From: Escherichia phage HK578
DNA length: 43,741 nucleotides
Reading direction: 5' to 3' (one strand)
Sequence record: NC_019724.1
Shown: positions 1,970 through 42,151 of the stretch, one piece after another
How positions within the stretch are numbered: position 1 is the stretch's first letter
How the letters are laid out: every line of letters begins with the position of its first letter
The notes under the pieces: model-generated
Seen by the model: the letters and a program-made list of their open reading frames with translations, nothing else
What the model was told of the DNA's origin: nothing
Database searches by the model: none
Translations under genes and position numbers: made by a program

Positions 1970-3490
1970 ATGACCGTTAACGTTGACAACCAGCACCCGC
2001 TCTATGCGCGCATAGCGCCAGAGTGGAAAATGATCCGTGACTGCGTAGCAGGGGAGCGCGCCGTGAAGGCGTGCGGGCCATTGTACCTGCCACACCCCGC
2101 AAGCGGGGACACCACCGACCCGAAATCACGGGCACGCTATAAGGCATATAAGCAACGTGCTGTCTTCCTGAACGCCACCGCCCGCACACTGAATGCCCTG
2201 TTAGGCGTGGCCTTCGCCAAACCGGTGAGTCTGGACCTTTCCGGGGCAATGGCTGACCTGATTGATGACGTAGACGGCAGCGGGATGCCACTGGCGCAAC
2301 TACTGCGCGGCGCTATGTCGGAAGTGCTGCAATCGGGCCGCGCAGGCTTTATGGTGGACTATGACCGCCAGGCGCATTTTGACGAACTGGGTAACGTAGT
2401 GCCGCAGACCGCCGCTGAAATGGCGGCACACCGCCCGCTTATCCGCCTGTATACGGCTGAACAGATCATCAACTGGCGGCAGACACACGGCGTCGACACG
2501 CTAATCGTGCTGAAGGAGACGGACGAAATCAGCACCGAAGACCCGGACGACTTCGCAAACCACGAAGTTACGATCTGGACCGAGCTTCGCATGATTAACG
2601 GTGCGGCACACGCCCGCCGCTGGTTTTACAACGCGGACACGTCCGAGGTGCAAATGGACTTGCCGCGGGGATTCACCCGCACCGACCTTGTACCTCTGGT
2701 GGACGCTGCCGGTAACGCGCTTACGCAACTGCCTTTCTGTTGGTGTGGCGCGGTGGATAACAACGCGACACCGGACGCCGCACCGCTGGCGGATATTGCG
2801 TCCATCAACATTAAGCACTACAACGCCGAAGCAGACGTCGCCGAGATTGCGCACATCGTGGGGCAACCTACCCTCATTGCGACTGGTCTGACCCAATCAT
2901 GGGCGGACAAGAACCTGAAAGGCGGCATCGCGCTCGGGGCAACTAAGGGCGTTATCCTGGGCCAGAACATGGACGCTAAACTGCTTCAGGCGGAGGAGCG
3001 CAACTTGTCTGTTGCACTGTGTGAGCGCCGAGAATTGCAAATGGCTAAACTGGGGGCGGCCCTGGTCGAGAAGGGGACCGCACCCAAGACGGCAACCGAA
3101 GCGGCCTACGATGCGCAGACAGATAACAGTATCCTGTCACTGATTGCCGGTAACGTTGAGAAGGCTTTCAACCGTGCGCTGCAAATCGTTAAGCTGTTCA
3201 CCGGCGACACCGCCGACCAGCGCGTAACGCTGAACAAGTTCTACACTGAAATCACGGTTGATGCGCAGCTTATGACCGCGATGATGGCAGGTGTGCAGAC
3301 CGGTACTGTCCGACTTGCAGACTTTATCAAGTGGATGATGGCCCAGGGCGTTATTGATGACTCGCAAACCGTCGAGCAGGTGGAAGACGAACTGCGAAAT
3401 CAGAATCCATTGCCTCAAATGTCCCCGGATGCGGTAGAATCGACCGAAGAAGCCCCGGACGAGGTAGCGGACAATGGCGAAGACAATTAA
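1970..3490 (+). CDS. portal protein
   Basis: 506-aa ORF immediately after TerL with SD AAGGAAA; size, position and acidic C-terminus typical of portal. Confidence 0.75.
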   Translation: MTVNVDNQHPLYARIAPEWKMIRDCVAGERAVKACGPLYLPHPASGDTTDPKSRARYKAYKQRAVFLNATARTLNALLGVAFAKPVSLDLSGAMADLIDDVDGSGMPLAQLLRGAMSEVLQSGRAGFMVDYDRQAHFDELGNVVPQTAAEMAAHRPLIRLYTAEQIINWRQTHGVDTLIVLKETDEISTEDPDDFANHEVTIWTELRMINGAAHARRWFYNADTSEVQMDLPRGFTRTDLVPLVDAAGNALTQLPFCWCGAVDNNATPDAAPLADIASINIKHYNAEADVAEIAHIVGQPTLIATGLTQSWADKNLKGGIALGATKGVILGQNMDAKLLQAEERNLSVALCERRELQMAKLGAALVEKGTAPKTATEAAYDAQTDNSILSLIAGNVEKAFNRALQIVKLFTGDTADQRVTLNKFYTEITVDAQLMTAMMAGVQTGTVRLADFIKWMMAQGVIDDSQTVEQVEDELRNQNPLPQMSPDAVESTEEAPDEVADNGEDN

Positions 3491-4577
3491 TCAATATATG
3501 GCGGATCGAATGATTCGCCGTCACATCTTCACCCAGCGCCTGAGCAATGACCAGGCGCGAAGGGTGCTGTCCATGTGGGAGAAGTTCCGGCCTACATTAC
3601 TGGGGGAGCTGACCGAGTTGCTTGATGGCAAATCGTCAATGAATAACCGGGCACTTTCCACCCTGCTAACGCAAATCGACAAGACCGTAAAAACGGAACT
3701 GCGCACCGAGTTTAAGGCGTTGGCTGAAAGCCTTCAGGAGTTTGCAGACACCGAGGCCGATTATCTCGCCGACACATTGACGGCAGCGGTCCAGCCGGTG
3801 GTCGCCGTACCCGCGGTCGAGGTAGTTGGCGTAGTGACCGGTGCGCAGATCGCAGCGACTGCGATGAAAAACCCGTTCCTGGGAAATACCATGATGCAAT
3901 GGCCCGACTCACTTTCTGAGTGGACCAGGACGCAGATCGGTAATCAGGTGCGGGCGGGATTCATCCAGGGCAAGCCAACGATGGAAATTATCGCGGACGT
4001 GAGGCGCGCGCTAGGCGGTCGTAGTGCGCAAGCCATCTCAAGCGTTGTTAAGTCCGCAGTCAACCACTATGCGGCGACCGCCCGCGAACTAATGGTAAAA
4101 GCAAATGACGATATTCTCGAAGGTCGCCAATGGTTATCTACATTGGACACGCATACTTCTCCCATGTGCCAGCTACGCGATCGCCTGTTTTATCCGGTTG
4201 ATGTTACCCCCGACACCAAAGGAAAGCGCGGCGGGAAAGTGGTGGCTGGGTCACAATATGGCGCTGGTCCGGGCAAGCTGCATTATTGTTGCCGGTCTAC
4301 GGAGACGTGGAAGGTTAAAGGCATGGAAGATTGGCCCAGTGGTAAGCGTCCGGCACTGAAGGCTGACGCGGGTCGATTGCTGAGTGAGCAGGTCGACGCG
4401 CAGACCGATTTCTTCTCATGGGTGCAGCGCCAGCCGCGCCATATCCTGGAAGAATTATACGGAGTGCAACGCGCAGACCAGATTATGCGAGGCGTGAAAG
4501 TGCCGAAGATGTTCACTGATACCGGCGAACTAATGACTATTGCACAGCTTAAAAACCGGGGGTTATGGCGTGATTAA
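3474..4577 (+). CDS. head morphogenesis / minor capsid protein
   Basis: 367 aa, overlaps portal 3' end; position after portal as in Mu F / SPP1 gp7-like genes; family assignment from position only. Confidence 0.55.
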   Translation: MAKTINQYMADRMIRRHIFTQRLSNDQARRVLSMWEKFRPTLLGELTELLDGKSSMNNRALSTLLTQIDKTVKTELRTEFKALAESLQEFADTEADYLADTLTAAVQPVVAVPAVEVVGVVTGAQIAATAMKNPFLGNTMMQWPDSLSEWTRTQIGNQVRAGFIQGKPTMEIIADVRRALGGRSAQAISSVVKSAVNHYAATARELMVKANDDILEGRQWLSTLDTHTSPMCQLRDRLFYPVDVTPDTKGKRGGKVVAGSQYGAGPGKLHYCCRSTETWKVKGMEDWPSGKRPALKADAGRLLSEQVDAQTDFFSWVQRQPRHILEELYGVQRADQIMRGVKVPKMFTDTGELMTIAQLKNRGLWRD

Positions 4578-5485: not shown

Positions 5486-5520
5486 CTTGTTTTCCTTCAT
5501 ATCTCTGTTGGTGTGCAACC

Positions 5521-5550
5521 AATATACTGCAACCAATATCCGCAATGCAA
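5521..5550 (-). promoter_or_regulatory. sigma70-like promoter for 5078..5485
   Basis: minus strand TTGCAT-18 nt-TATATT; spacer and -10 overlap two TGCAACCAAT copies (5514-5523, 5528-5537). Confidence 0.4.
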
Positions 5551-24115: not shown

Positions 24116-24658
24116 TTATTTAAGTGCGCCAGTCACCAGTGTTTTTTCCATGTTACGGAAATCTTCCTGCGTCATGCAGATTTTCGATCCGTCTTCGCCG
24201 GTGAGCACGACCATAGCCTGCACATCTTGTGCCTCGACGCCCTTAACCGTCTTGCCGAAAGAGGCCACCGTGTCCTCCGCAACTCGAATTGCGCTGTTAT
24301 ACGCATTAATCTCACCGTCGAGACGCATGGACAGGCCTTTGAGGCTGTCGAATTGTGCTGCCGTTGTATCGATCTGAATCTCATCATGCACGGTCATGTA
24401 CGACTCGCCCAGCAGGGAGGCATACGCCACCAGATCCACGATGTTATCTTCCTGGTGCTTACGGTGCTGGCGCACCAGCTTCAGGCAGATCAGGAAGGTC
24501 CAGGCTTCTTGCTCGGACAGGTCGCGCCCGGTAAGCGCGTTAAACACGGCGGCGATCTGTTTAGCGCTGCGTTCTTCTTTCGCGTTGTCATAGCCGTTTT
24601 CTTTCCCGCGCTGTTCCATAGTGGTGGCGGCGTTTTTACAGTATTCGTATGCTTTCAC
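24116..24658 (-). CDS. hypothetical protein
   Basis: 180 aa, GTG start with SD AAGGG; preceded by promoter-like element and 5'UTR hairpin GGGGGC-gataca-GCCCCC. Confidence 0.5.
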   Translation of the reverse strand: MKAYEYCKNAATTMEQRGKENGYDNAKEERSAKQIAAVFNALTGRDLSEQEAWTFLICLKLVRQHRKHQEDNIVDLVAYASLLGESYMTVHDEIQIDTTAAQFDSLKGLSMRLDGEINAYNSAIRVAEDTVASFGKTVKGVEAQDVQAMVVLTGEDGSKICMTQEDFRNMEKTLVTGALK

Positions 24659-24705
24659 AGTATTACCCTTTTTAGCGAGGGGGCTGTATCGCCCCCGACA
24701 CGTTT

Positions 24706-24735
24706 ACTATAGTGCAACCAACCTATTGGTTGCAA
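24706..24735 (-). promoter_or_regulatory. sigma70-like promoter overlapping palindromic operator-like site
   Basis: minus strand TTGCAA-18 nt-TATAGT; embedded perfect inverted repeat TGCAACCAA-ccta-TTGGTTGCA (24713-24734). Confidence 0.4.
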
Positions 24736-25193
24736 GTGAATTTTGCAACGTTTATTGCGTAAATTTTCGGGACCAAATCACCACACGCCCGACGAATCGC
24801 CGCGATGTTCTTCTCGCAATCTTCAATGATGACCAGTTCAGACACGTCCGCGTAGCAGACCATTTTGAACACGGCGCACGCCTTAAACTCTGGCGGCGGG
24901 GTGTCATCCAGCATGTGGCGCATAAACAACCGGCCTACGGGGAAGACCTCCAATTGCTCGGCGGTGGTGTCCCAACATTCTCGCTGCCGGTTGGTCAGAT
25001 ACGCGATCTCGAAGCCTTGCTCTTTATACATGTGCAACAACGGCAACATATCCATGTTCAGGTCTTCGCGGACGTGCGCCTTGTGCCACTTCGCCCAAAA
25101 GGTGGATTTAGTTTTTATACCCGGCACCAGGTCGGCGCGCGCATCGCTTGAACCGTTAATAACGCCATCCAAATCGCAAATCAGTAATTTCAT
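24723..25193 (-). CDS. HAD-superfamily phosphatase (nucleotidase-like)
   Basis: N-terminal DLDGV (HAD motif I), YLTNR (motif II), IIEDCEKN (motif IV); SD GAGGAA. Confidence 0.7.
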   Translation of the reverse strand: MKLLICDLDGVINGSSDARADLVPGIKTKSTFWAKWHKAHVREDLNMDMLPLLHMYKEQGFEIAYLTNRQRECWDTTAEQLEVFPVGRLFMRHMLDDTPPPEFKACAVFKMVCYADVSELVIIEDCEKNIAAIRRACGDLVPKIYAINVAKFTCNQ

Positions 25194-25414
25194 TTCAATT
25201 CCTCAATAAGGGTGGCTCGGGCGCTGCGCGCGGTGTAAGAGTTGCACACGAAATGACAACGTCGGGTAATGACAAGCCACCCGGTAAGGTCCATACCAAG
25301 GAGGTGTTCTGGCCGTGACACGCGACGCACACGATCGCGGCGCGGGTCGATGTTATAGTCTTTTTGCATTTGGTCTACGACCGCGTGGTCGCGGTCAACG
25401 ATTAAGATATTCAT
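25190..25414 (-). CDS. hypothetical small protein
   Basis: 74 aa from ATG 25414 (MNILIVDRD...); overlaps the Dam 3' end by ~20 nt; start uncertain. Confidence 0.35.
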   Translation of the reverse strand: MNILIVDRDHAVVDQMQKDYNIDPRRDRVRRVSRPEHLLGMDLTGWLVITRRCHFVCNSYTARSARATLIEELK

Positions 25415-25880
25415 GTAGCTCACTCTCGCTCATTATTTCAATTTGTGCGCTGCCGGTGGGCGGCGCTTCGTCAAATATTATCAATTGCTGGCACTTGTTA
25501 TTGCTCGGCCCGACTTCACCGGTCACAGCATGTATAAATCGGATCCGCCAGTCCAGAAGAATTATCAGGTTTGCAGTCTTCCGGGCCAGCTTCGCCCACT
25601 TCGTCGACGTGTCCTGATTCAGTAGCATGACGGTCCGGCGTCCGTGCGCTGCACACTCGACCCACGGCAGCGGATCGGAATACGGCGGGTTGCACCACTT
25701 CCACCCTTTCAACTCTGACCAGTCCACTTCAAGCGCGCTGTGCTCTGCCGTGAAGTAACGCGGTAGCAGGTGGTTGTCATCGCTCGCCGCCATGTCATAA
25801 CGGAATCGGTACTTCCGGCGCAGCGGTTTAAATAAAGCTGGCGGCGTGCACCAGCTATCTTTTTGCTCATTCTTCGACAT
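25395..25880 (-). CDS. DNA N6-adenine methyltransferase (phage Dam family)
   Basis: ATG 25880 with SD GGAGA; motifs DMAASDDNH and WCNPPYS characteristic of phage Dam-type amino-MTases. Confidence 0.8.
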   Translation of the reverse strand: MSKNEQKDSWCTPPALFKPLRRKYRFRYDMAASDDNHLLPRYFTAEHSALEVDWSELKGWKWCNPPYSDPLPWVECAAHGRRTVMLLNQDTSTKWAKLARKTANLIILLDWRIRFIHAVTGEVGPSNNKCQQLIIFDEAPPTGSAQIEIMSESELHEYLNR

Positions 25881-25899
25881 CTCACTGTCTCCAGGTATT

Positions 25900-25924
25900 A
25901 AAAAGGGCGTCCAACCGGACACCC
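25900..25924 (-). terminator. intrinsic terminator / attenuator inside early operon
   Basis: minus strand GGGTGTCC-ggtt-GGACGCCC followed by TTTTT, located between promoter-like element and Dam RBS. Confidence 0.5.
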
Positions 25925-25926
25925 TC

Positions 25927-25955
25927 AATATAATGCAGCCAATCTAGTTATGCAA
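25927..25955 (-). promoter_or_regulatory. sigma70-like internal promoter
   Basis: minus strand TTGCAT-17 nt-TATATT; overlaps direct repeats TGCAGCCAAT (25934-25943) and TGCAACCAAT (25951-25960). Confidence 0.4.
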
Positions 25956-25960
25956 CCAAT

Positions 25961-26284
25961 TTACGCATAAAAATTTGGGTCGCGCGCTACGTCTACCAGA
26001 TACAGGTTGCTCATGCGGTTGCCGTAGTGCCCAGGCGTGCGCTGGCGACACACAACGGCGAAGCCTGGAGGGATTGTATTGCCTGTCTCAATAATCCACG
26101 CCACGCGTGCGCCAGACAGCGTCTTGCCGTTGTATTCGATGCGCGTGCCCCCATCGGCAGTGTTAAGGTTGCCAATCTTACAGCCTGTGGACTTCAGGCG
26201 AATGACACCGGTCTTGCTGTCGTAGGAAAAAAGCTGATTGGTCATTGCCACTGAAAAGTCGATTGCGTCGAATGCAGTATTCAT
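25961..26284 (-). CDS. HNH_3/AP2-like domain protein (catalytic status unclear)
   Basis: 107 aa; segment order DGGTRIEYNGKT / ARVAWIIETG / GNRMSNLYLV resembles HNH_3-type homing endonuclease domains but the usual His positions are not obviously conserved. Confidence 0.4.
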   Translation of the reverse strand: MNTAFDAIDFSVAMTNQLFSYDSKTGVIRLKSTGCKIGNLNTADGGTRIEYNGKTLSGARVAWIIETGNTIPPGFAVVCRQRTPGHYGNRMSNLYLVDVARDPNFYA

Positions 26285-26976
26285 TTTAAATTTTCCTCGT
26301 TAACCGCTATCGCGAAGCCGCGCGGGGTGAGTGAGCGGATTAATTTTGTACGAGCGGATTTACCACCGAGGCGACTATACTGCTTCGAGTACCCTTTTTC
26401 AACGAAAACAGGTTTCTTCTCGGGCATACGGAAGCCGTTTCCAGTCCATAAGCAGGTCAGCTTCGGATATGAATCGCGGGCGTTGATGTATTCAGGGAAG
26501 AGCGGGTGTACGTCATCCTCTGGCAGATATCCGCCATACTCCCACGGGTCAAACGAGTGGTCCGGCTTACGCCACTGGGTGGAAAGCACGCTGCGCGGAT
26601 TCTCAATCATATATGGCACTTCGAAGAAATCACCCAGGTAAGCTGCGATCTTCGCGGTGCGCACCGCCTTAAGCTGGAAGGCAGGGTCGCGGGCGCGTTT
26701 GCGCGGGAAAGCTGGCGCACCGCTAACCGCCAGATCCGTACACGGAGGGAATGCGTAAATGATATCCGGCGTGCCGAAATCGCCATTCATAGCGCGGGCC
26801 ACGAAGTCCAGGTCTATAAACTCATTACGATAGCGGATCCCGCGCCCATAAATCCGGTAGTCCAGGTACGACCCGTGATCGGCTTCGGAGTAGTTGAAGC
26901 AGTAACACTTATGCCCCATCTCGGCAGCACGCTCAATCATCAAGCCGCTGCCGTCGAATAATGACCAGATAATCAT
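26281..26976 (-). CDS. C5-cytosine methyltransferase-like protein (compact)
   Basis: 231 aa; motif I-like LFDGSG (res ~7), PPC (res ~78, PCT rather than PCQ), ENP (res ~126) with C5-MTase-like spacing; too short for a typical target recognition domain. Confidence 0.5.
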   Translation of the reverse strand: MIIWSLFDGSGLMIERAAEMGHKCYCFNYSEADHGSYLDYRIYGRGIRYRNEFIDLDFVARAMNGDFGTPDIIYAFPPCTDLAVSGAPAFPRKRARDPAFQLKAVRTAKIAAYLGDFFEVPYMIENPRSVLSTQWRKPDHSFDPWEYGGYLPEDDVHPLFPEYINARDSYPKLTCLWTGNGFRMPEKKPVFVEKGYSKQYSRLGGKSARTKLIRSLTPRGFAIAVNEENLK

Positions 26977-28397
26977 TTGCGCGCCTTTTTAGCTTTCATG
27001 TATTCCATTAAATCGTCCTGAATATCGCGCTTACTGTCGCGACGTTCGGCGACCAGTTCATCCAGTGTGCCGCGAGCCTGGATAATGTAGACGAATACTG
27101 GACGAGGGTGCCCGGCTTGCATCTGGCGAACTGGCCCGATACGCTCCACGATCTGCGCAAAGTGCTCGTAGTTCCAGGTGTCTGAGAAGATAGCAAGGTG
27201 GTGTCCGCCATCCTGCAAGTTAAGGCCGTGACCCGCCGATGCCGGGTGCGCAAACATGATGGGGATCTCGCCCCTGTTCCACGCTTCCATATCCTTATTT
27301 CCTTGCTTTCCCTTACCCATCGCTACGCCGTGCGGGAATTTCTTCTTAAGACGTGCCAAGTCATGCTTGTACTGGTACGCGACGAGCAACGGTGCGCCGT
27401 TCAACTCCTCCACGATACTTTCCAGCGCGTCCAGTTTAGCGTCGTGGATTTTCACCCATTCGTCGGTGCGCTCGCCGTCTTCGTCGACTTTATACACGGC
27501 CCCTGAAGCAAGCTGAAGGCACTTAATAGTCTTCGACGCAGCGTTCGCCGCCTCCACAGTTCCGCTTTCCAGTTCGGCAAATAGCTCCGCTTCGAACTGG
27601 TCATAAATCTTGCGGGCTTTCTTCGGCAGGTCCACAACAACCGGCGTATAGATTGGCTTGTCACATCCGAAGTATTCAGCCGCATCAACTGTGAGCGACA
27701 CGTCGGACAGGCGTTGTTGTATTTCTTTCTCGGAGTTCTTAAGCGGGGCGTGCTGCATAGTGAAGCTGCCAGGCTTAACAGGCTTGCTAATAAACCAGCG
27801 ATCCGTGAATGCCTTATAGCTACTGCCGAGGCGTTCGCCACCATCGACAAACCACGTCTGACCCCACAGGTCTTTCAGTCCGTTTGGTGCGGGTGTGCCG
27901 GTTAGGTTAATCCAGCGCTTGACGTGCTTGTGAGCAATCGCCGCCAGCGCACGGGCGCGCTTACTTCCCTGCTTGCTTCGATAGCCTTTCAGCTTAGTCG
28001 ATTCATCGGCAACCACGACCGTAAAGGGCCACTCGTCGCCGCAATACTCAACAAGCCACTCAACTACATCATAGTTAATACAAACCACGTTAGCGTCGCT
28101 CTCAAGCGCAGCGATGCGGTCCTTCTCCGACCCAGTGCCATCTACTACCAGCAAGGCGGGGAAGCGCCATTTTTCCTGCTCTGGGGGCCATGTACCGGAC
28201 GCAACGCGCAGCGGGGCCAGCACCAGTACGCGGTCCTCCTGGTTGGACAGGATGCCGGTCTGGAACATTTTATTCAGTGCCCACATAGTCGCGCCGGTTT
28301 TGCCCGACCCCATTGTCGCCCATATATTGCATCGCTTATGCTTGAGGATGAACGCGGTTATCAATTTCTGATATTCGCGACGTCGGAATCTTGCCAT
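26973..28397 (-). CDS. SNF2-family helicase
   Basis: Walker A MGSGKTG, motif II VVADEST, motif III LTGTPAPNGL; start taken at ATG 28397 (MARFRRREYQ...), longer ORF to 28487 possible. Confidence 0.8.
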   Translation of the reverse strand: MARFRRREYQKLITAFILKHKRCNIWATMGSGKTGATMWALNKMFQTGILSNQEDRVLVLAPLRVASGTWPPEQEKWRFPALLVVDGTGSEKDRIAALESDANVVCINYDVVEWLVEYCGDEWPFTVVVADESTKLKGYRSKQGSKRARALAAIAHKHVKRWINLTGTPAPNGLKDLWGQTWFVDGGERLGSSYKAFTDRWFISKPVKPGSFTMQHAPLKNSEKEIQQRLSDVSLTVDAAEYFGCDKPIYTPVVVDLPKKARKIYDQFEAELFAELESGTVEAANAASKTIKCLQLASGAVYKVDEDGERTDEWVKIHDAKLDALESIVEELNGAPLLVAYQYKHDLARLKKKFPHGVAMGKGKQGNKDMEAWNRGEIPIMFAHPASAGHGLNLQDGGHHLAIFSDTWNYEHFAQIVERIGPVRQMQAGHPRPVFVYIIQARGTLDELVAERRDSKRDIQDDLMEYMKAKKARK

Positions 28398-28401
28398 ATC
28401 T

Positions 28402-28620
28402 TTATTCCGCCTTTTTCCAGACTTCTGTCTCACTGTTCCAGTTCCTTTTTGTCGCGTCGTAGTTGGTGGCGTGTCCGATGTGCACACCAGTAGCCCGGAA
28501 GCTCTTAAATTTTTGCCAGCACACCGTCAACGGCAGCGGGTAATTCATGCCCGCGATAAACCATACGCGATCGCCTGGTTTGCATTCGCCCAGTGTGGTA
28601 AGTCGGTAGTGTTCTTTCAT
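28402..28620 (-). CDS. hypothetical protein
   Basis: 72 aa from third ATG (MKEHYRLTT...) 7 nt after GGGAGA; alternative starts up to 28635. Confidence 0.4.
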   Translation of the reverse strand: MKEHYRLTTLGECKPGDRVWFIAGMNYPLPLTVCWQKFKSFRATGVHIGHATNYDATKRNWNSETEVWKKAE

Positions 28621-32729: not shown

Positions 32730-32793
32730 TTTCCAATTCCTCATTTTACATGTATCGGGGTTATTGTAAGCCACCCCGTTCGGCTTGGTTGCT

Positions 32794-32822
32794 AATCTAC
32801 TTGGTTGCGCCTAAGCGGTCAA
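32794..32822 (-). promoter_or_regulatory. sigma70-like internal promoter
   Basis: minus strand TTGACC-17 nt-TAGATT; direct repeats TTGGTTGC at 32785-32792 and 32801-32808. Confidence 0.35.
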
Positions 32823-38275: not shown

Positions 38276-38347
38276 ATTTTGCGCGCATTGGTTGCCATTT
38301 TGAGTGTTTTTAGCTGGTCGCATTGGTTGCCGTGTAGTGTGAATATA

Positions 38348-38539: not shown

Positions 38540-38698
38540 CATAAAATCCCGGATTGCATAATACACGGCAGCATGTTGCGGATTGCGGTCGTCGCTGAAC
38601 TAGGCAACCAATGCGAGTTGCAGAATGGTGGGTGAAAAATGCAGTTTGCAGTCACAGCAGATAGCGATCAACTTTTTCATGCGCGTGATTAATATTGG

Positions 38699-38727
38699 TT
38701 GCATCCGCCCCAGCACCCTGCTATATT
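38699..38727 (+). promoter_or_regulatory. sigma70-like promoter for 38755 gene
   Basis: TTGCAT-17 nt-TATATT; ATTGGTTGCA copies at 38694-38703 and 38725-38734; downstream 22-mer identical to the one upstream of 5078..5485. Confidence 0.45.
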
Positions 38728-38754
38728 GGTTGCACACCAACAGGAGGGCGGAAC

Positions 38755-42088: not shown

Positions 42089-42151
42089 TTGCTTGACTTG
42101 CAACCAACATAGACGCCATACTGCGACCAATCAACGAGAGGAGTAATCAAG

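Follow-up and report, generated by a model that had tools for sequence, protein, structure and literature searches.

The window analyzed here, the whole 43,741-nucleotide stretch of Escherichia phage HK578 (sequence record NC_019724.1), is an essentially complete Dhillonvirus genome, with a block of adjacent genes in its minus-strand replication or early region that encodes two DNA methyltransferases and several smaller proteins. This is probably an ordinary Dhillonvirus early block, in which two orphan methylases act independently of each other, the remaining genes are unrelated neighbors, and a terminator/promoter junction separates two sub-operons. Open reading frames (ORFs) and the sequence itself give the minus-strand order as SNF2 helicase, Dcm-like C5-methyltransferase, HNH-like protein, Dam-like N6-adenine methyltransferase, Ksap1 homolog, HAD phosphatase, and DUF6378 protein. 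An earlier note on this DNA had described the Dcm-like, HNH-like, Dam, and HAD genes as four adjacent minus-strand genes. All four are real and belong to families recognized far beyond chance, but they are not all adjacent, as a fifth gene, encoding the Ksap1 homolog, lies between Dam and HAD.

ATGA overlaps are found at three junctions (helicase/Dcm-like, Dcm-like/HNH-like, and Ksap1/HAD), and the Dam stop overlaps the Ksap1 gene by 20 nucleotides. The genes are therefore predicted to form two translationally coupled sub-operons, one consisting of the SNF2 helicase (its first gene), the Dcm-like, and the HNH-like genes and the other of Dam, Ksap1, and HAD. A spacer of approximately 80 to 84 nucleotides (25881-25960) separates the HNH-like gene from Dam, and another one, of 64 nucleotides, separates HAD from the DUF6378 gene.

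The Dcm-like protein (positions 26281-26976; 231 amino acids) matches phrog_757 with an E value of 2.3e-82 and belongs to a large family, with 2,881 matches in a word-indexed search and 817 cluster representatives in an exhaustive one, whose members are typically 220 to 260 amino acids long. Its motif I, L6-F7-D8-G9-S10-G11 (LFDGSG; family consensus SLFDxTG), forms the FxGxG S-adenosylmethionine-binding loop. In an alignment of 54 diverse homologs, the catalytic Cys residue of motif IV (FPPC79) is invariant, as are, among other residues, E125 and P127 of motif VI (E125-N126-P127) and K172, while N126 is nearly so. The AlphaFold2 model built from this alignment has a predicted local distance difference test (pLDDT) score of 93.8 and a predicted template modeling (TM) score of 0.91. 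In Foldseek searches of the PDB with this model, ranks 1 to 46 are all occupied by DNA C5-methyltransferases, namely, DNMT3A/B, DNMT1, and the methyltransferase of the CP-933R prophage; the best match has an E value of 8e-7 and a TM score of approximately 0.5. The protein has no Pfam or NCBIfam match and nothing significant in a single-sequence search of the PDB, and the family profile retrieves from the PDB only DNMT2, with an E value of 0.82.

A member of this family has been characterized experimentally. In a preprint on the retron Ec86, a 711-bp dcm gene was described in K42, a phage closely related to KarlJaspers (Bas06); its product generates 5-methylcytosine at a CCWGG site on the multicopy single-stranded DNA, which triggers the retron, and is active when expressed alone (bioRxiv 10.1101/2023.08.16.553469). 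Bas06 itself (MZ501090) carries a matching 711-bp gene, bas06_0055, annotated as a Dcm-like C5 cytosine methyltransferase, whose 236-amino-acid product and the window protein share 54% identity across the full length (E value, 6e-87). The earlier note's label of "C5-MTase-like" protein is thus borne out by this identity, the C5-methyltransferase fold, and the intact motifs, and on the same sequence evidence it can be sharpened to "Dcm-like". Not every Dhillonvirus keeps the gene: in Shigella phage EP23 (locus L023, 2476-4312), it is missing, with the HNH-like gene coming right after the helicase, and the copy in phage TheodorHerzl (Bas14; locus L006, 3926-4504) is C-terminally truncated to 192 amino acids. 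Since it is absent in one phage and truncated in another, the Dcm-like methylase is dispensable in Dhillonvirus.

The Dam-type N6-adenine methyltransferase (25395-25880; 161 amino acids) was likewise assigned correctly. It matches PF05869 with an E value of 1.1e-35 (123.3 bits against a gathering threshold of 28.1) and phrog_111 with an E value of 2.8e-55, and it contains the catalytic motif NPPY (N64-P65-P66-Y67). Its NCBIfam score (TIGR01712, 88.2 bits; E value, 4.3e-25) is under the equivalog cutoff of 97.05. The gene starts with an ATG codon preceded by GGAG 8 nucleotides upstream, and a gene of the same 486 bp is annotated in relatives; a 177-amino-acid frame starting with TTG is merely the longest ORF. 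Dam is present in all relatives examined. A PADLOC search returned only generic methyltransferase models for Dam, and the other proteins of the block matched no model.

The earlier note had suggested that these genes together could form an anti-restriction or DNA modification module. Modification by the two methyltransferases is supported by homology and intact catalytic motifs; joint action of all genes, with the HAD and HNH-like proteins taking part in a methylase pathway or in base hypermodification, is very unlikely. The genes are tightly clustered and translationally coupled, and their order is kept even in a divergent relative in which HAD is only 42 to 43% identical. The HNH-like protein also has a 40% identical homolog, gp31 of Edwardsiella phage eiAU-183 (Eiauvirus), that is again encoded between an SNF2 helicase and a C5-methyltransferase-Dam pair. 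However, EP23 retains all the other genes without the Dcm-like one, and Bas14 has it truncated. In Bas06, a member of Drexlerviridae, the homologs of Dam, the Dcm-like protein, and HAD are encoded kilobases apart, and a 70-kb phage type has a solitary Dcm-like gene among unrelated neighbors. The K42 enzyme methylates DNA on its own, the block was not found to contain any genes for base hypermodification, and no PADLOC model other than the generic methyltransferase ones for Dam was matched.

The 107-amino-acid HNH-like protein (25961-26284) is labeled as a homing endonuclease in most GenBank records. The HNH label finds its only support in phrog_99 ("HNH endonuclease"; E value, 1.9e-15). There is no match to the Pfam HNH or HNH_3 domains at E values up to 10 (the best one in any homolog has an E value of 0.29) and none in NCBIfam, and neither single-sequence nor family-profile searches of the PDB give anything significant. 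The AlphaFold2 model is of mediocre quality (mean pLDDT, 69), and its sole meaningful Foldseek match is I-HmuI (PDB 1u3e; E value, 0.015; probability, 0.97; query TM score, 0.49). After the I-HmuI sequence had been confirmed against the PDB, hhalign placed GFAVVCRQ of the window protein on GLVVDHKD of I-HmuI, which puts Val78 and Cys79 at the positions of catalytic Asp74 and His75, although this alignment is weak (E value, 0.32). Across the family, the residue at the His-equivalent position is Cys, Cys, or Leu. The earlier note's description of an HNH_3-like protein agrees with the phrog_99 match and with the tentative I-HmuI fold match, but no Pfam HNH domain is found and the catalytic Asp and His residues appear to have been lost.

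It is highly improbable that this gene encodes an active HNH homing endonuclease marking a mobile insertion. Apart from the phrog_99 and I-HmuI matches, such an activity would be in keeping with the His86, Asn93, and Asp98 residues, which are invariant in the family, but the substituted catalytic pair, the missing Pfam match, and the lack of the C-terminal half all argue against it. Moreover, the gene occupies the same locus in all of the approximately 160 matching phage records and in 16 of 16 IMG/VR loci, whereas homing genes are distributed in just the opposite, patchy manner; its product is more than 80% identical in about 156 records from Dhillonvirus. A scan of IMG/VR for distant relatives gave only Dhillonvirus-type contigs and eiAU-183. 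The fixed position, the lost Asp and His, and the syntenic eiAU-183 homolog suggest that the 107-amino-acid protein is probably a domesticated, noncatalytic I-HmuI-like DNA-binding domain, and the "HNH endonuclease" label on most records is probably wrong.

That this domain assists the SNF2 helicase, the methylases, or both by binding DNA, perhaps so as to direct or time the methylation of replicating phage DNA, is rather improbable, even if the gene is found beside an SNF2 helicase and the C5-methyltransferase and Dam genes in two genera, Dhillonvirus and Eiauvirus, and is translationally coupled to a short Dcm-like enzyme that is poor in target recognition domain sequence. A strict partnership with the Dcm-like enzyme is contradicted by EP23, which has the HNH-like gene but no Dcm-like gene. 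The HNH-like protein was also considered as an obligate Dcm partner, which was rejected for the same reason and because, in other phages, Dcm-like genes have neighbors that bear no relation to it.

The stand-alone HAD phosphatase (24723-25193; 156 amino acids) is confirmed as a member of the HAD superfamily by its match to phrog_415 (E value, 5.8e-36) and by the retention of the HAD motif residues. In 13 homologs, D7 and D9 of motif I, R69 beside motif II, K104 of motif III, and D125 of motif IV are invariant; motif II itself is represented by T67, with Thr or Ser in most members, and motif IV by the acidic pair E124-D125. Of these 13 proteins, 11 match the polynucleotide kinase-phosphatase (PNKP) family HAD_PNKP (PF25109), with E values down to 2.4e-22, and the family profile detects in the PDB the Pnkp1 structure 4xrp (E value, 2.1e-9) and also the T4 polynucleotide kinase (5uj0 and 1ltq). 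A single-sequence search of the PDB with the 156-amino-acid protein yielded nothing significant. The protein is accordingly predicted to be a stand-alone PNKP-type phosphatase domain, a membership that points to 3'-phosphate nucleic acid ends as the substrate at least as much as to pools of deoxynucleoside monophosphates.

The earlier note had proposed that the HAD enzyme could tune nucleotide pools. That it is a (deoxy)nucleotide phosphatase reshaping these pools, rather than an end-healing polynucleotide 3'-phosphatase, is possible, though less probable. The protein shows weak similarity to class B acid phosphatase and nucleotidase families, namely, to PF03767, to the structure 2i33, and to AphA; PF03767 is the only Pfam match of the window protein taken alone (E value, 2.2e-5; 24.5 bits against a cutoff of 27). 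In addition, the annotation of Bas14, a close relative in which the gene order is the same, includes neither a kinase domain nor an RNA ligase, and the classic end-healing pathway would therefore be incomplete. The best family-level matches, on the other hand, are to the PNKP phosphatase domains, and phrog_415 itself is labeled as a polynucleotide kinase.

The spacer between the two sub-operons contains a sigma-70-like promoter candidate, TTGCAT-N17-TATATT (25927-25955, minus strand), which is conserved in phages JL1, B2, Bas14, and SECphi18 and in the divergent contig L009. It is overlapped by two copies of the TTGGTTGCA/TTGGCTGCA repeat (25951-25959 and 25934-25942). The pattern TTGCnn-N16-18-TATAnT occurs 8 times, with 0.79 occurrences expected. 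The promoter candidate is followed on the same strand (25897-25926) by a GC-rich hairpin with a 10-bp stem, GAGGGUGUCC-GGUU-GGACGCCCUU, and a T-run, TTTTTAAT. The predicted folding energy is -17.7 kcal/mol (z score, -4.81), and none of 200 shuffled sequences folds as well. A hairpin of different sequence is found at the corresponding place in L009 (-19.6 kcal/mol; z score, -6.1), and "terminator" features are annotated under the matching stretch in the PTXU06 and WFI records. Covariation support for the hairpin is weak and comes from these separate predicted folds: RNAalifold finds one compensated pair only, and the divergent sequence is misregistered in the alignment. A stricter consensus scan lists neither the promoter candidate nor the hairpin.

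The promoter-like site and the hairpin, both proposed in the earlier note, are thus real and conserved, but the hairpin is more readily taken as a terminator of upstream transcription than as an attenuator of Dam. An attenuator was set aside since the stem begins directly after the -10 hexamer and, judging from the coordinates, a transcript starting at this site would miss most of the 5' arm; for the same reason, the hairpin should terminate transcripts coming from upstream. It is likely to be the intrinsic terminator of the helicase/Dcm-like/HNH-like transcript. A second promoter-like unit is found on the minus strand between HAD and the DUF6378 gene (24675-24735). It combines TTGCAA-N18-TATAGT with a palindromic TGCAACCAA...TTGGTTGCA pair and a GC hairpin that has no T-run, and the same architecture recurs in L009 (4360-4432).

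The 9-mer TTGGTTGCA is present in 11 exact copies in the window and, when one mismatch is allowed, in 26 copies, with 11.4 expected. The copies are mostly arranged in intergenic pairs that overlap promoter-like sites of the TTGCAT-N17-TATATT type and are located at 5514-5536, 21605, 24713-24734, 25934-25959, 28893, 32785-32809, 35376, 38288-38331, 38603, 38695-38734, 39433, and 42099-42130. They likely represent a family of phage promoters or operators.

Most likely, the two orphan methylases would act during replication, placing 5-methylcytosine at CCWGG and N6-methyladenine at GATC sites of the phage DNA, so that the progeny DNA would be fully modified regardless of the Dam and Dcm status of the host or the speed of replication. 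The only nucleases against which such DNA would be shielded are those cutting unmethylated GATC or CCWGG; any protection would be limited to enzymes cutting at the target sites of the methylases themselves. As a cost, the methylated phage might become visible to methylation-sensing defenses, such as the retron Ec86/Eco1. The HAD phosphatase would be a neighbor outside the modification pathway, with 3'-phosphate ends or 3'-nucleotides as its probable substrates, and the Ksap1 homolog and the 107-amino-acid protein likewise would be neighbors and not parts of that pathway.

Across the window, GATC (162 sites; observed/expected ratio, 0.81) and CCWGG (137 sites; ratio, 0.92) are not depleted, and neither is GATATC. 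Several palindromes are absent altogether, including AAGCTT (14.2 sites expected), GCCGGC (18.2), GGGCCC (14.4), CGGCCG (9.1), GCATGC (7.6), and CACGTG (7.1), a pattern that has the signature of restriction site avoidance. These statistics are consistent with site-specific protection, but the Dam and Dcm enzymes of the host could also account for them.

Alternatively, the methylases might serve the DNA metabolism of the phage, through full GATC methylation that prevents nicking by MutH, through control of replication or packaging, or through the timing of expression. Dam is known to take part in P1 packaging and in mismatch repair. The methylase genes are located inside the replication block, near the helicase and the polymerase, and Dam is kept by all relatives examined while the Dcm-like enzyme is dispensable; furthermore, both sites are methylated by the hosts anyway, so an anti-restriction function would bring less benefit. 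Against this stand the general association of orphan phage methylases with restriction evasion and the strong avoidance of palindromes, which indicates a genome under restriction pressure. On balance, such a metabolic role appears unlikely.

The reading of two independent orphan methylases with unrelated neighbors also has points that count against it. GATC is the specificity of the PF05869 members T1, HP1, and VT-2 Dam, and the proposed GATC target of the window enzyme is extrapolated from these family members; similarly, the CCWGG target of the Dcm-like enzyme is extrapolated from a homolog with 54% identity. The Dcm-like protein does not reach PF00145 even at an E value of 0.1, so that its gathering threshold is missed as well, and only 5 of the 54 homologs match this family (best E value, 0.0039); the missed threshold is a limit of the Pfam model and not of the protein. 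The HAD protein alone does not reach PF25109 at an E value of 0.1 either, and the invariant His86 of the HNH-like protein could in principle replace the lost His. The usual Escherichia coli host has both Dam and Dcm, and GATC and CCWGG sites could thus be tolerated without any phage enzyme. A search of the literature gave no direct methylation data for the DNA of any Dhillonvirus. In the BASEL study, Dhillonvirus compared unfavorably with Queuovirinae in resistance to the tested type I and type II restriction-modification systems, the panel included no GATC- or CCWGG-specific system, and in the related Drexlerviridae resistance to restriction did not track in any simple way with the presence of methyltransferase genes (PMC8594841).

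The block also differs from that of its relatives by a missing gene. In every relative examined, the HNH-like gene and Dam are separated by one or two genes, phrog_10530 (111 to 154 amino acids) with or without phrog_18961, and the gap between the HNH-like and Dam genes is 407 to 841 nucleotides, compared with approximately 80 to 84 nucleotides in the window. The phrog_10530 region is found, for example, at positions 3374-3709 of locus L001, 3377-3841 of L002, 4906-5613 of L006 (Bas14), and 1888-2346 of L007. The contiguous HNH-like/Dam junction of the window is seen in none of 131 matching phage records, and no other part of the window contains the phrog_10530 gene; Dam is joined directly to the conserved leader. 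This loss turns HK578 into a naturally occurring knockout of a gene that nearly all Dhillonviruses have. The "DNA ligase" name carried by phrog_10530 looks like a propagated annotation error, because these proteins have no Pfam match and are far too short.

The Ksap1 homolog (25190-25414; 74 amino acids) matches phrog_10685 with an E value of 3.5e-47. Ksap1 (KpAvs2-stimulating protein 1) is encoded by a gene flanked by those for a methyltransferase and a phosphatase, directly activates the Klebsiella Avs2 sensor, and is dispensable for the phage; the changes K30V, L39M, and F60V allow escape from KpAvs2 (PMC11564622). Across relatives L013 to L026, identity to the window protein ranges from 50 to 99% for Ksap1, compared with 84 to 96% for Dam and mostly 96 to 99% for HAD, the latter two ranges referring to the closer Dhillonviruses. 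The high variability of Ksap1 fits diversifying selection by immune sensing. The homologs of Ksap1 and of the Dcm-like protein are known immune triggers (of KpAvs2 and the retron Ec86, respectively), and their presence would predict which defenses are able to sense the phage.

The block is flanked by the genes for the SNF2-family helicase (26973-28487, minus strand) and the DUF6378 protein (24116-24658, minus strand). The helicase matches PF00176 (E value, 2.1e-11) and phrog_62 (E value, 2e-157) and is annotated in JL1, B2, and Bas14. Its longest ORF, 504 codons from a GTG at position 28487, extends 30 codons beyond the 474-amino-acid product annotated in these phages; the true start probably lies downstream of this GTG, inside the longest ORF. 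The 180-amino-acid DUF6378 protein (E value, 1.7e-9; phrog_9871) has no significant match in a single-sequence search of the PDB, and the literature on DUF6378 yielded nothing informative. Its counterpart in the SECphi18 RefSeq record is labeled "Nucleotide modification associated protein," and related PHROGs are labeled "phosphofructokinase." Rfam families are found nowhere in the window, and a repeat search across the region gave nothing meaningful.

A 4.5-kb query around the block matched 159 phage records, nearly all of them Escherichia or Shigella Dhillonvirus genomes of 43 to 46 kb, with phage B2 as the best match (approximately 94% nucleotide identity). The gene order from terminase to lysis agrees with that of the curated BASEL phage Bas14. 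Public records already carry annotations of this block, and experimental data have been published for homologs of two of its components. The significance of the present analysis goes little beyond the correct annotation of the block. Nevertheless, a family with approximately 2,900 matches that is missed by Pfam and has an experimentally active member merits the name of Dcm-like methylase.

The closest known systems include the gene blocks of other Dhillonviruses. Bas14, JL1, B2, and SECphi18 share the order and the products of the block: the helicase, the Dcm-like enzyme, a putative homing endonuclease, the Dam-like enzyme, a small hypothetical protein (Ksap1), and a putative phosphatase. Identity to the closer Dhillonviruses is mostly 91 to 100% for the Dcm-like, HNH-like, Dam, and HAD proteins and is lower in L022, L024, L025, and divergent contigs of the L009 type. 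The Ksap1 homologs of the window and SECphi18, both 74 amino acids long and 84% identical, occupy the same place between the methyltransferase and phosphatase genes but differ at the escape positions, where the window protein has R30, L39, and Y60.

Other known systems resemble single components. The window HAD protein shares motifs I to IV, and its family the profile match, with T4 Pnkp (1ltq and 5uj0) and Capnocytophaga Pnkp1 (4xrp), but, unlike these enzymes, it has no kinase domain. The HNH-like protein resembles I-HmuI (1u3e) in the N-terminal β-rich region and the NRxxNL segment; however, I-HmuI has 174 amino acids, and the shorter window protein lacks the C-terminal helices, the helix-turn-helix, and the DNA-binding half. 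With the T1-type Dam of Bas06, the window Dam shares 30% identity, and it is shorter (161 versus 233 amino acids). The residues that matter in K42 Dcm are C82, E128, K175, and K176 (bioRxiv 10.1101/2023.08.16.553469). The first three correspond to C79, E125, and K172 of the Dcm-like protein, which also shares the match to the DNMT3-like fold, whereas the counterpart of K176 is Leu; K42 and Bas06 belong to another phage family, in which the gene has other neighbors.

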